From UHGV virus genome UHGV-0022223: 36,010 nt of DNA. One strand, 5' to 3'. The DNA comes from a virus. The notes under the pieces were generated by a model that worked only from the letters and a program-made list of their open reading frames with translations, was not told the origin of the DNA and made no database searches. The translations under genes were made by a program, and so were the position numbers. Positions 3,177-6,028 of the stretch are shown piece after piece; position 1 is the stretch's first letter; the number at the start of each line of letters is the position of its first letter.

Positions 3177-3470
3177 ATGAAATCAGTAACTAAGCCATGT
3201 CCTATTTGTGGTGAAGGCGCTTTGTCTTTTAACCAGACAAATCAGTTGGTTAACATCAAAGTAAATCCACCAACTATTCGTGAAGTTCCATCAGTGGTTT
3301 ATGTTTGCGATACACACGGATGGTTTTCACTTTCAGAACAGATAAACAGCCTCGTTACATCAACAGACGACCCTGTGGCTAAACAAAAATTGGCAGTTAT
3401 CGTCAAAGAGCGATATGTGCCGGAACATGATCAGCCGTTAGCTCTGAAACCTATTGAGTCGCTCGCATAA
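3177..3470 (+). CDS. Hypothetical zinc-ribbon protein (CPICG...C..H), AT-rich, opposite orientation inside leftward early operon
   Basis: 97-aa ORF with RBS AAGGA; visibly lower GC than flanks; converges on and overlaps the 3451..3720 gene by 20 bp. Confidence 0.5.
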   Translation: MKSVTKPCPICGEGALSFNQTNQLVNIKVNPPTIREVPSVVYVCDTHGWFSLSEQINSLVTSTDDPVAKQKLAVIVKERYVPEHDQPLALKPIESLA

Positions 3471-3720
3471 GGTCTTTTCGGCTCTCACTGCGATATCCCA
3501 GGCGGTACATTTTCACGTAGGCTTTGCCACGAGGAATGCCGCCTGTTTTGTTGAATCTCTGCTGGGCGCGACGATGGTGTTTTGCTTCAGGGCTGTTTGA
3601 TCCTTTCCCGCCATCCGACCGCGAACTCGGGAGTTGCATTGGCTTTTGGCGTGAATCGAATTTACGTGCCCAGCACGCTCCAAAGCCGATCATTCCTGTT
3701 TTCTTCGTATTACCTTTCAT
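3451..3720 (-). CDS. Small basic protein, first gene downstream of PL-like promoter (function unknown; possible N-like regulator)
   Basis: Track ORF 3451..3765 starts at TTG; internal ATG at 3720 has RBS AAGGAG 7 nt upstream. K/R-rich 89-aa product. Confidence 0.5.
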   Translation of the reverse strand: MKGNTKKTGMIGFGACWARKFDSRQKPMQLPSSRSDGGKGSNSPEAKHHRRAQQRFNKTGGIPRGKAYVKMYRLGYRSESRKDLMRATQ

Positions 3721-3869
3721 CTCAATCTCCTTTGCCCTTGTCGCCAGGCTGGCGGAACGTTTCAAACCTACTGCGCGTTAATCTCACCACCTCATTCCGG
3801 TCTTCGTATGCCCCGGACGGCTACTTCGTGGGCTCCATGCCTGGGTGGTTCGTGGTGCGTCTTGGTGAT

Positions 3870-3945
3870 TGCATATTAAGCCTGAGACTTAAATCATGTC
3901 AAGCTCCAGGCGAAATGTGATTGTAAGTTTCAGGCTTAATCGTGA
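3870..3945 (-). promoter_or_regulatory. OL/PL-like region: leftward promoter with repressor operator sites
   Basis: Minus strand reads TTGACA (plus 3897-3902), 18-bp spacer, TAATAT; operator-like 17-mers TTAAGCCTGAGACTTAA (3876-3892) and TAAGTTTCAGGCTTAAT (3924-3940) match those beside the repressor gene. Confidence 0.55.
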
Positions 3946-3964
3946 TGTTCACCGAATTGCAGGC

Positions 3965-3998
3965 AAAAAAAATCCCGACGCTAAGGTCGAGATCGGGG
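3965..3998 (-). terminator. Rho-independent terminator (minus strand) upstream of PL
   Basis: Stem TCCCGA (3973-3978) / TCGGGG (3993-3998), followed on the minus strand by an 8-nt U tract (plus A8 at 3965-3972). Confidence 0.5.
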
Positions 3999-4043
3999 AC
4001 TTCGTGGCTGGGTGTTGGCGGCTGAGATGGTGGGTGAGGGTGT

Positions 4044-4073
4044 AAAAAACCCGGCGCTGTGGCCGGGTTTTTT
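4044..4073. terminator. Bidirectional rho-independent terminator ending the moron operon
   Basis: A6, then CCCGGC-gctgtg-GCCGGG, then T6; sits just after the stop of the 34-aa ORF on the minus strand. Confidence 0.7.
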
Positions 4074-4075
4074 CA

Positions 4076-4180
4076 TTACTGCTGGTTAAATCCTTTCGGC
4101 GAGTGCTGCTGTTCTTTATTACCAAATTTTTGATTTACAATGATTTTATAAGCGTTATTGAGAGCTTGCTTTATAGACAT
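4076..4180 (-). CDS. Small 34-aa basic peptide (MSIKQALNNAYKIIVNQKFGNKEQQHSPKGFNQQ), coupled to upstream 434-aa gene
   Basis: ATG at 4180 with RBS AAGGAG 6 nt upstream, 17 nt after the 434-aa gene stop; stop followed directly by the terminator. Below the track length cutoff. Confidence 0.45.
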   Translation of the reverse strand: MSIKQALNNAYKIIVNQKFGNKEQQHSPKGFNQQ

Positions 4181-4197
4181 TAATATCTCCTTATGTG

Positions 4198-5502
4198 TTA
4201 TTGACGATTAAAGTAGTTAGAGTTTAGCTCTTTAGGGAAGTAGTGTTTACGATTTACCCAAACAAATCCATCAACTTTTGATATCACAGCGACATCAACA
4301 GGCCCACCGACAGTTTCATAATCATGTGATACTTTTCTTTTGAATGCAGTGATGTTCACTAATGATTCGGCCATATACGCAAGATCTGCCTTCCCAAGTG
4401 ATTGCAACATCGATATCATTTTATTTGTATGGTTATTAACAATATAGCTTTCAAGTTTAGTATCGTGATCTTGTAAAAGTACGTTTTTGAGTTCCTCAAT
4501 TTCACTGGAGAAGTGATTGGCTAGTACTCCATTGTTCATTGCAGGGAAAATATTGCTAGAAACATAATGATTAAGCCGATCAAAAACTTCCTCTGTAAGA
4601 GTTCTGTTAAAATTAATGATGTTAGGGTTGCACCCATCAATGAAAGTTACTACTTCATCTTCTTGAGCAAATGGTATAACAAACCCCATATTGGTTACCT
4701 CATTATGGGATTTCTCATCAATATTATGGATCATCAATTTGTTTTTAAAAATGCCGTAGATATGAAGAGTGCAAATGGAAGGGTAATATTCTTCCTCTCC
4801 ATAACCTGTTATAACAATCCCTGAATATGTACGACTAGCATGGACTTTGAAAATTAAACAAGTGGAATATAATATGACTTTTTCCATAAGCTCTTGCTGT
4901 ATATTTTCACAGTTATCAAGAACAATAATTGATGAAATGTATGGCGATATTAAATCTTGTATATATGCTAAAGCATCATTAAACTCTTCTGTATCAAACC
5001 CTTCGAAAAAGAGATTATTCCTTAAGATTCCTATCTCTAAATCAAAGGCTTGCTTAACTATGTTTTGAAAAATAACATTGTCGAGTTCAACGGCGGGGTT
5101 CATTGTTAAATAGTTTACTACATTATTATCATTAATGTATCTCATCAAACCTTTGAGGTTATCAACAACAAGGTTTATAACGCAAGCCTCTCTCATTTCA
5201 TTTGTTATAAGGTCTGAGTTACCATTGATGAATTTTACAAAGTCATTAACATATTCTTTAATGGTAGGGAAACTAGTTTTCCCCAATTGTTTTCTATAGG
5301 ATTTAATTATAAGTTCCCACGGTGCGCCACCCAGTGTCGCATTATTATAAATCATGATCCCCACGGGATGGTGTTTAGATAGTTCGAATAGTTTTTCCGC
5401 ACTATTATTTATTTTTACTAATCTATTATGCTCTGTGGTGACTGCAGAGTCAGCAGCAAGGGCGATTCCAGTATTATTTATTACAACAATCTCAGCTGTC
5501 AT
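4198..5502 (-). CDS. 434-aa protein with proteasome-beta/HslV-like Ntn-hydrolase sequence blocks and a large internal insertion; AT-rich moron
   Basis: Long ORF in strongly AT-rich DNA. Starts MTAEIVVINNTGIALAADSAVT...KLF (Thr after Met, Asp about 16 residues later, Lys before LF), has a TGYGEEE block, and ends GGPVDVAVISKVDGFV, which closely resembles the proteasome beta C-terminal strand recalled from memory. Confidence 0.8.
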   Translation of the reverse strand: MTAEIVVINNTGIALAADSAVTTEHNRLVKINNSAEKLFELSKHHPVGIMIYNNATLGGAPWELIIKSYRKQLGKTSFPTIKEYVNDFVKFINGNSDLITNEMREACVINLVVDNLKGLMRYINDNNVVNYLTMNPAVELDNVIFQNIVKQAFDLEIGILRNNLFFEGFDTEEFNDALAYIQDLISPYISSIIVLDNCENIQQELMEKVILYSTCLIFKVHASRTYSGIVITGYGEEEYYPSICTLHIYGIFKNKLMIHNIDEKSHNEVTNMGFVIPFAQEDEVVTFIDGCNPNIINFNRTLTEEVFDRLNHYVSSNIFPAMNNGVLANHFSSEIEELKNVLLQDHDTKLESYIVNNHTNKMISMLQSLGKADLAYMAESLVNITAFKRKVSHDYETVGGPVDVAVISKVDGFVWVNRKHYFPKELNSNYFNRQ

Positions 5503-5526
5503 TGCAAAACATCCCGTGTAGTAGTG

Positions 5527-5560
5527 ATAAATATTAATTAAATTGATAGTTTTTCAATCT
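5527..5560 (-). promoter_or_regulatory. Candidate promoter for the moron operon
   Basis: Minus strand reads TTGAAA (plus 5552-5557) followed 15-18 nt later by an AT-rich -10 candidate (TAATAT/TATTTA); weak RBS. Alternatively read through from the repressor gene. Confidence 0.25.
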
Positions 5561-5641
5561 AACATAAATGGCGGAATCACCCCCCAGTAAAGACATCATT
5601 GTCTCATGGGAACTAAAAATTCAGGACAAACCTAAAGCGAT

Positions 5642-6028
5642 TCAGTCCCCCTGCGAGCGAATCCGCCCCTTCATGTACTTCTCATACAGCTCATCCAGTT
5701 CCTTAAGACGTATCGAAAAGATGCGGAGCATGTTCTGTTGCTCTTCTTCTGGCAGCTGGCGGTAGAGCTCAAGCAGGCGCTGTTCGTCCGGCTTAAGTCC
5801 GTCCTTCTCGCCGACATCCTCACCGAGTAACCAAGGCACAGACACGCCAGCTGCGTCAGCGACAGCGAGAGCTGATTTCTTGCTGATCACGCCTTTTTTA
5901 AACCAGCCGTTCACAGACTGCGGGGTTACCCCAGCAACCCTGGCCATATCGGATTTGGTCATACCGCGCCCGTTCAGCTCTGAAAGGCGTTCGACAAGTA
6001 TCGGATTAAGTACGGTTTTCTCTTTCAT
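5642..6028 (-). CDS. Prophage repressor, HTH XRE family, DicA/RacR-like (no S24 peptidase domain)
   Basis: 128 aa; N-terminal HTH (MTKSDMARVAGVTPQSVNGWF) and a C-terminal LLELYRQLPEEEQ segment resembling DicA from memory; divergent from a Cro-like gene with operators between them. Confidence 0.75.
   Translation of the reverse strand: MKEKTVLNPILVERLSELNGRGMTKSDMARVAGVTPQSVNGWFKKGVISKKSALAVADAAGVSVPWLLGEDVGEKDGLKPDEQRLLELYRQLPEEEQQNMLRIFSIRLKELDELYEKYMKGRIRSQGD

Follow-up and report, generated by a model that had tools for sequence, protein, structure and literature searches.

A conserved small gene forms a two-gene cassette with a proteasome-like N-terminal-threonine hydrolase gene in a Rac-like prophage region and in bacteria, archaea and phages

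The virus genome UHGV-0022223, a stretch of 36,010 nucleotides (nt) referred to here as the window, carries on its minus strand a 34-codon open reading frame (ORF) just downstream of a gene for a 434-amino-acid (aa) proteasome-beta-like hydrolase with an N-terminal threonine. The data show that the hydrolase gene and the small ORF, in that order, make up a self-contained two-gene cassette and that the two genes are near-obligate companions across domains. Its substitution pattern shows it to be a genuine protein-coding gene under purifying selection. As far as sequence can indicate, the small protein is probably a dedicated bound subunit of the enzyme which controls it. The cassette and the terminator that closes it have the following features.

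4076 to 4180, minus strand: small ORF of 34 codons plus TAA, encoding a basic hydrophilic protein with a predicted helix (residues 3–18) and a disordered tail (residues 19–34).
4187 to 4192, minus strand: Shine–Dalgarno sequence AAGGAG, separated by a 6-nt spacer from the small-ORF ATG.
4198 to 5502, minus strand: gene for the 434-aa proteasome-beta-like N-terminal nucleophile (Ntn) hydrolase, with helical insertions at about residues 95–220 and 290–370.
4044 to 4073, minus strand: intrinsic terminator (A-tract, 6-bp G+C stem, 6-nt loop, T-tract), closing the two-gene cassette.
4076 to 5560, minus strand: the AT-rich cargo cassette ('moron') as a whole, comprising a promoter-like site, the large gene and the small gene, up to the terminator.

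The association between the two genes was examined in 167 homologous loci with enough downstream sequence, taken from GTDB species genomes, GenBank phages and satellites, IMG/VR and assemblies. In 166 of these, from bacteria, archaea and phages, a same-strand small ORF of 34–80 aa overlaps the large-gene stop or lies closely 3' of it (the single exception is taken up below). A same-strand ORF of 30–95 aa begins no more than 40 nt from the stop in 164/167, and at L041 and L086 the small ORF is found at −4, behind a longer spurious frame. The small ORF overlaps the end of the large gene in 70 loci, with ATGA-type and longer overlaps, and starts 0–30 nt past it in 93. This arrangement exceeds chance expectation. 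Among 83 homologous loci, 96% have an ORF of 30–90 aa starting within 40 nt of the large-gene stop, whereas such an ORF follows 37% of the stops of the other long ORFs in these loci; when the downstream regions are shuffled, 35% contain an ORF of at least 30 aa. A search of the flanks in 80 diverse loci gave no third conserved gene, and the small ORF is the only recurrent neighbour.

The first-pass annotation had proposed that the ORF encodes a genuine co-expressed partner of the proteasome-like gene and had named lack of conservation in related loci as evidence to the contrary. The proposal is upheld by the small ORF in 166/167 loci, by strong purifying selection on codons 1–20 and by the shared cassette. 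The frame is intact in the relatives from E. coli, Klebsiella, Citrobacter, Rahnella and IMG/VR, with a terminator after each copy. A relative whose large protein is 80% identical to that of the window encodes the small peptide MSVKQAMNNAYKIIVNQKFGNKEQPSSPKGYNQK, a Klebsiella relative (large protein 70% identical) encodes MSVKQALDSAYKIIINQKFSSQPPQKTNAKNYNEQ, and Citrobacter, Rahnella and IMG/VR relatives (large protein 41–46%) encode peptides of the MS/TLQQVVDNAYKALAAAKFP... type, 34–37 aa in length. Over codons 2–21 the window copy and that of the 80% relative show 11.5 synonymous differences in 11.3 synonymous sites and 2.5 non-synonymous differences in 48.7 sites, a ratio of non-synonymous to synonymous differences per site (pN/pS) of 0.05. 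Three Citrobacter-type copies show 10–13 synonymous and 0 non-synonymous differences over the same codons. Values of pN/pS are 0.00–0.05 in the closest informative enterobacterial pairs and 0.00–0.19 among close relatives. The tail of the peptide (residues 20–34) varies freely, which agrees with the AlphaFold2 model of helix 3–18 and a disordered remainder. The reading frame is open in every enterobacterial relative examined, though the neighbouring protein diverges by 20–60%.

In the Klebsiella prophage loci L087–L090, gene callers place a convergent 128-aa gene on the opposite strand (locus positions 5292–5678). This call crosses the terminator, is antisense to the entire small ORF and overlaps the large gene by its final 11 nt. 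The call hides the small gene in the annotation, and its 3' part probably arose because a stop is missing and is then an artefact.

The small ORF begins with ATG at 4180–4178 and ends with TAA at 4078–4076, and its 34-aa product is MSIKQALNNAYKIIVNQKFGNKEQQHSPKGFNQQ, which includes the stretch MSIKQALNNAYK. The large gene stops with TAA at 4200–4198, leaving a 17-nt gap, cacatAAGGAGatatta, before the small-ORF ATG. The gap and the Shine–Dalgarno sequence with its spacer are exactly as first described, on the minus strand. A Shine–Dalgarno-like motif lies 5–12 nt 5' of the small ORF in 22 of 24 distinct enterobacterial-type loci, and RNA folding of the initiation region shows no significant structure masking the start (z = −0.35). 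Translational coupling of the small ORF to the 434-aa gene, as the first-pass annotation had it, is plausible; independent initiation is equally possible because the small ORF has its own strong Shine–Dalgarno sequence and an unstructured initiation region.

The terminator, AAAAAACCCGGC-cacagc-GCCGGGTTTTTT at 4073–4044, starts 2 nt past the small-ORF stop, in keeping with the earlier claim that a hairpin follows directly. Its predicted folding energy is −18.9 kcal/mol (z = −4.9; none of 200 shuffles as stable). A consensus terminator scan missed this hairpin because the A and T tracts pair and lengthen the stem. Its symmetry suggests that the terminator may act in both directions. Analogous hairpins lie 3' of the small ORF in Klebsiella and other relatives. 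As the single terminator directly follows the small gene, co-transcription of both genes is implied.

The peptide is basic, as had been noted, with an isoelectric point of 10.0 and a net charge of about +3.6, and it is strongly hydrophilic (grand average of hydropathy, GRAVY, −1.10). In the AlphaFold2 model of the 34-aa peptide, the helix at residues 3–18 has a predicted local distance difference test score of 84–88 and the remainder is disordered. The hydrophobic moment of the helix (0.32) was matched by 22% of shuffles, within a range of 11–27%, and the helix is not significantly amphipathic. No hydrophobic segment and no recognisable DNA-binding domain or fold was found in the peptide, and scans of Pfam, NCBIfam, PADLOC and PHROG gave no match for it. 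Its C-terminus reads ..PKGFNQQ, and close relatives end in ..GYNQK, ..NYNEQ or ..TKKK. The HbYX/GQYL docking motif and a Pup-type GGQ/GGE C-terminus are absent from the window peptide. At least 1000 contigs carry a deposited 'hypothetical protein' with exactly this 34-aa sequence, and RefSeq/PGAP omits the ORF in one E. coli record inspected.

The large protein has the alpha-beta-beta-alpha Ntn sandwich of proteasome beta subunits. Scans of Pfam, NCBIfam and PADLOC gave no match; the sole family match is phrog_5990, whose function is unassigned, and the more than 6000 homologous sequence clusters all have source names of 'hypothetical' or 'uncharacterised'. M1-T2, D18, K30 and K37 are invariant in alignments of 36 and 22 homologs, as are the M1-T2-A3 start and S19, and Gly48 is largely conserved at the position equivalent to Gly47. 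When the Met is removed, Thr2, Asp18 and Gly48 land exactly on proteasome positions 1, 17 and 47. We infer that the equivalent of Lys33 is K37 or K30, across a variable loop, and the probable catalytic residues are Thr2, Asp18, Lys37 and Gly48. Because Thr2, Asp18 and Gly48 keep the proteasome spacing, the enzyme is probably catalytically competent. A C-terminal block, ETVGGPxDVAxISKxDG, resembles the Thermoplasma beta-subunit sequence. The N-terminus reads MTAE in 139/168 loci. In RefSeq/PGAP, as in the clustered protein database, the large gene has a start some 96 nt further upstream (5502–5598) and a product of 466–467 aa. Since the Met-Thr-Ala-Glu N-terminus is conserved and the Thr is the likely nucleophile, the true start is most likely the ATG at 5502, for a protein of 434 aa; in the longer version the catalytic Thr would lie buried.

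In the predicted model the first insertion follows the first helix pair (H1/H2) and comprises helices 101–134, 142–161, 171–192 and 203–218. The second is a long hairpin (293–322 and 325–368) between H3 (281–289) and H4 (371–392). The same architecture has been described for PMI-3 and PMI-4, 'proteasome homologs with multiple insertions' (PMI), of which PMI-4 is an abundant subfamily in bacteria, Euryarchaeota and phages (Fuchs, Alva and Lupas, 2021; PMC8665760). The large protein carries its insertions at the PMI-4 sites. PMI-3 has the same insertion sites, and PMI-4 was chosen because it is abundant and occurs in phages, bacteria and archaea; the large protein would belong to PMI-4, whose representative is HDY66466.1, by architecture and distribution. 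The enzyme family has been described bioinformatically already, and the window peptide has been deposited in some records. In the same paper the authors report seeing neither a genomic context nor co-occurrence that would hint at a function (PMC8665760). Our literature searches gave no later work on the subfamily, no account of the conserved small gene as a partner and no functional study of either the enzyme or the small protein.

Most non-enterobacterial loci, including the archaeal ones, encode a recognisable family of small proteins of 52–80 aa, which we call the long form. These proteins have a Lys-rich N-terminus, a first motif, a linker and a second motif. The first motif is x-Y/F-x-S-x-x-E-F/Y-E-K-K-Y/F-F-P (..EYEKKYFP..), in which the Pro is invariant, and the second is D-P-x-x-x-G-x-x-L-A-x-x-S-L (..G..LA..), in which the Gly is near-invariant. 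An exhaustive profile search gave 593 long-form representatives, and those listed are unnamed, stand-alone proteins of 48–113 aa; no Pfam family was matched by the long-form sequences scanned. In a reverse look-up, two long-form small proteins were each encoded directly 3' of a gene for a 428- or 430-aa protein, and the one of these larger proteins that was compared is 35% identical to the window large protein (E 3e-78).

The small proteins of gammaproteobacteria and phages are shorter and divergent, and fall into three groups: A, which contains the window peptide; B, with the pattern MSLKQAYERTQPKS..DFF..NFFxKL; and C, the Vibrio/Providencia type (..ELREWQKKFNPS..FxW). Profile–profile comparison gave E-values of 0.003 for A with B, 0.0025 for C with the long form and 0.05 for A with C. 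We treat the window peptide as the positional equivalent of the long-form family, and as a possibly truncated descendant of it. As comparisons between hidden Markov models (HMMs) of the four small-protein groups are weakly positive at best, we do not claim that the short and long forms are homologous. A conserved C-terminal aromatic motif (F-x-W or FFSR) beside ELREWQKKFNP is found at L110, L111, L117, L140, L153–L159 and L168 (IMG/VR). This motif of the Vibrio/Providencia type, which the window peptide lacks, could serve for docking. One of the small-protein clusters also contained a 404-aa protein; it is an unrelated ABC permease and was rejected as a clustering artefact.

At 99.6–99.8% identity the window matches E. 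coli chromosomes, and the cassette lies in a region of it with the gene order of a Rac-like prophage: RecE, YdaE, a hypothetical gene, the cassette, an HTH (helix-turn-helix) repressor, YdaS, YdaT and the replication genes O and P. The features upstream of the large gene are as follows.

5530 to 5557, minus strand: candidate sigma-70 promoter (TTGAAA, 16 nt, AATATT), a match to the consensus only.
5642 to 6028, minus strand: 128-aa HTH repressor-like gene (cI/RacR-type), directly upstream of the cassette, with Pfam HTH_3 and PHROG repressor matches.
From 6058, plus strand: divergent YdaS/cro-like gene, as annotated by RefSeq in the identical region.

A gap of 139 nt separates the repressor gene from the large gene and contains the candidate promoter; the cargo unit runs from this promoter-like site near 5557–5530 to the small-gene stop codon. 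The GC content of the cassette is 31–37% against about 50% in the flanks, and the cassette is present in 13 of 5426 complete E. coli genomes. In another Rac-like prophage, with different cargo in the slot, homology is confined to window positions 3954–4073 (the terminator region) and stops 2 nt below the small-ORF stop codon. Because the shared homology ends 2 nt from its stop, the small peptide belongs to the cargo cassette. The dip in GC content, the rarity in E. coli and the alternative cargo in the slot together identify the cassette as mobile cargo. The slot beside the repressor is where lambdoid phages carry accessory genes that are expressed in the lysogen. A near-identity DNA search of the phage collection gave no match.

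In that other Rac-like prophage, L172 (E. coli 1368KP), the slot extends from the repressor to a kil-like gene; its unrelated cargo comprises genes for hypothetical proteins (211 and 101 aa) and an extra HTH gene and is followed by the same terminator. This slot looks like a cargo hot spot. The 128-aa repressor-like protein of the window has an HTH and is without a LexA/S24 peptidase domain, and the Klebsiella prophages with the same cassette have S24-type cI repressors. Past the cassette terminator there are a strong promoter-like site (3902–3873, minus strand, 10/12 matches), a second terminator-like hairpin (3994–3971, minus strand) and a 49-aa ORF (3896–4045, plus strand). Phage ORFs further to the downstream side encode a 97-aa zinc-ribbon protein (3177–3470, plus strand, phrog_31519) and a basic protein (3454–3765, minus strand, the ORF spanning 104 aa, phrog_29236).

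Elsewhere, homologous pairs sit in accessory slots of a similar kind. In Klebsiella lambdoid prophages the pair is downstream of cI; a Providencia phage has it between Q and the holin, and in Stenotrophomonas phages it adjoins the lysis genes. Streptococcus satellites carry it at their end, next to RelBE. In other phyla the chromosomal neighbours are mixed and include P2 GPA, GmrSD, a methyltransferase with ParE and DUF4258, or Fic; others are transporters and metabolic or housekeeping genes. At L173 (3316–6177), L175 (3871–5271) and L056 (1351–2481) the pair lies near genes for N6/N4 methyltransferase, ParE, DUF4258 and Fic-domain proteins. Fic is upstream in 4/80 loci, and these neighbours of toxin–antitoxin or restriction type are suggestive, not systematic.

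Taken together, we think it likely that the small protein is a subunit devoted to the enzyme. It would be synthesised in step with the enzyme and bind it. The conserved N-terminal helix (residues 3–18) would be the contact element, the variable basic tail would stay disordered, and the bound subunit would control assembly of the enzyme, substrate access or activity. Proteasome-family proteases are generally under the control of partner proteins or docking peptides, and lone subunits are inactive (PMC8665760 and general knowledge). By analogy, a cofactor, assembly or specificity role would fit this general dependence on partners, and it fits downstream, coupled and roughly stoichiometric synthesis.

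Several observations weigh against this reading. The mixed neighbourhoods fit a mobile two-gene islet and are not proof of a defence role. L027 (Vibrio sp. J1-1, NZ_JAKKCM010000006.1, locus position 4284 onward), the sole locus of 167 without the small ORF, has an intact-looking large gene followed directly by a terminator. No small–large fusion protein is present among the matches listed (all 68 of one search and the best 150 of 593). The window peptide is not detectably homologous to the long form: the long-form HMM scores it at E = 57 (−0.5 bits), group A aligned with the long form by hhalign reaches E = 0.43, and the long-form profile, run against every window ORF, failed to single out the 34-aa peptide. 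Equivalence of the short and long forms would therefore rest on position and on the weak stepping-stone similarities given above (A with B, C with the long form and A with C).

The alternatives differ in what they take the small protein to do. If the free Thr-hydrolase were toxic or competent for abortive infection, the small protein could be an antitoxin-like inhibitor that neutralises it until a phage-derived trigger or host shut-off removes the inhibitor, and the cassette would be a toxin–antitoxin or abortive-infection module borne by the prophage; we consider this unlikely on the whole, although an inhibitor fits the mobile-element habitat, the compact and overlapping two-gene layout and the rapid divergence of the small partner, which evolves much faster than the enzyme. 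The positions beside the repressor, between Q and the holin, beside the lysis genes and at the satellite end by RelBE are classic accessory-gene sites, and some neighbours are ParE, DUF4258, Fic, GmrSD or methyltransferase genes. However, many loci lie among housekeeping genes, neither protein was matched in PADLOC-DB 2.0.0 at E up to 1, candidate systems included, the small protein has no recognisable DNA-binding domain, and the downstream position of its gene disfavours antitoxin excess. A type II toxin–antitoxin pair would agree with co-occurrence in 166/167 loci, yet at L027 the enzyme gene is intact and the small gene is missing, a state that ought to be harmful were the enzyme toxic by itself. 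L027 thus bears on the choice between antitoxin and cofactor; it fits a cofactor, and we lean slightly towards an obligate cofactor or specificity subunit over an antitoxin-like inhibitor. By analogy with Connectase, the small protein might instead be a substrate or tag, cleaved at the aromatic-Pro motif or transferred or ligated, with the fragment as the active agent. The invariant Pro within the conserved motif of the long forms is in favour of this, but this Pro is missing from the short form in the window, with KFG in place of the KFP of Citrobacter. Further modifying or target genes do not recur beside the pair in the 80 loci, and the large insertions in the model follow H1/H2 and separate H3 from H4, whereas the signature two-helix insertion of Connectase is at S3/S4 (PMC8665760). 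A substrate or tag role is therefore improbable.

Besides a regulator or inhibitor, the first-pass annotation had raised a membrane-acting peptide. A membrane-acting or lytic peptide, for example of the type I toxin or holin-like kind, that shares no more than a transcript with the enzyme would agree with a small cationic product, but the GRAVY of −1.10, the lack of a hydrophobic stretch and a helix without significant amphipathicity (its moment reached by 11–27% of shuffles) disfavour it; all relatives of the window peptide are hydrophilic, and the long-form relatives are highly charged and soluble-looking. We regard it as very improbable. Least probable of all is a chance ORF or a non-coding element of the 3' untranslated region or small-RNA type conserved for RNA reasons. 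The ORF is indeed very short and unannotated in the RefSeq record inspected, and weak sub-threshold Rfam matches overlap the terminator. The substitutions, however, are codon-periodic, with synonymous sites saturated and non-synonymous change near zero; the frame stays open in all enterobacterial relatives examined while the adjacent protein diverges, the Rfam scan gave no match at the gathering score, and the opposite strand in the window has no long ORF. Both the membrane-acting peptide and the chance ORF are effectively excluded.

On a wider view, which we put forward tentatively and consider rather doubtful, the pair would be an unrecognised two-component system on mobile elements of bacteria and archaea, perhaps a new class of protease-based abortive-infection or exclusion module, or perhaps a Connectase-like enzyme with a small protein as its own dedicated substrate. 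The 34–80 aa protein would then gate, target or be processed by the stand-alone Thr-hydrolase, and in the abortive-infection or exclusion variant the module would be expressed from prophages and satellites. Because it is found in prophage accessory slots, lytic-cassette regions and satellites, the cassette is a reasonable candidate for a new phage–host conflict module.

Of the branches of the proteasome family that are still uncharacterised, the multiple-insertion homologs form one of the largest. The small partner makes this orphan enzyme family testable, as a defined binary complex to co-express, purify and solve, and a start-codon mutant of the small ORF offers a simple genetic handle on whether the enzyme is activated or restrained by it. 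The case also shows how short genes are systematically dropped, since an ORF under purifying selection is unannotated in the RefSeq record inspected.

Among known systems, toxin–antitoxin pairs of type II with reversed gene order (HigBA, HicAB) resemble the cassette in their compact overlapping operons on mobile elements and their small, fast-evolving second protein. They differ in that no toxin or antitoxin family is recognised here, the small protein has no DNA-binding fold and one natural locus (L027) retains an intact enzyme without the small gene. The rexAB genes of lambda and other accessory cassettes beside a prophage repressor (sieB of Rac and lambda) are likewise two-gene, AT-rich cargo next to the immunity repressor of a lambdoid prophage, with their own terminator, and vary between related prophages; RexA/RexB and SieB have no sequence or fold relationship to the cassette proteins. 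HslV/HslU and the 20S proteasomes with PAN/Mpa, Bpa/PafE or Ump1 share with the cassette a Thr protease that relies on a separately encoded partner for activity, gating or assembly, and short C-terminal peptides of the partner can suffice (general knowledge; discussed in PMC8665760). In contrast with HslU and the other activators, the partner here is a stand-alone protein of 34–80 aa without an AAA+ domain, and unlike the docking activators the window peptide ends in NQQ, without an HbYX or GQYL-type motif. The enzyme also differs from 20S and HslV in its insertions, which are predicted to hinder ring stacking (Fuchs et al., 2021). With PMI-4 the likeness lies in a proteasome-beta fold, a free Thr after the initiator Met without a propeptide, insertions after H1/H2 and between H3/H4, and a distribution over many bacterial phyla, Euryarchaeota and phages. 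The difference is one of context, of which the defining paper saw none; here a small downstream gene accompanies the enzyme in 166 of 167 loci.

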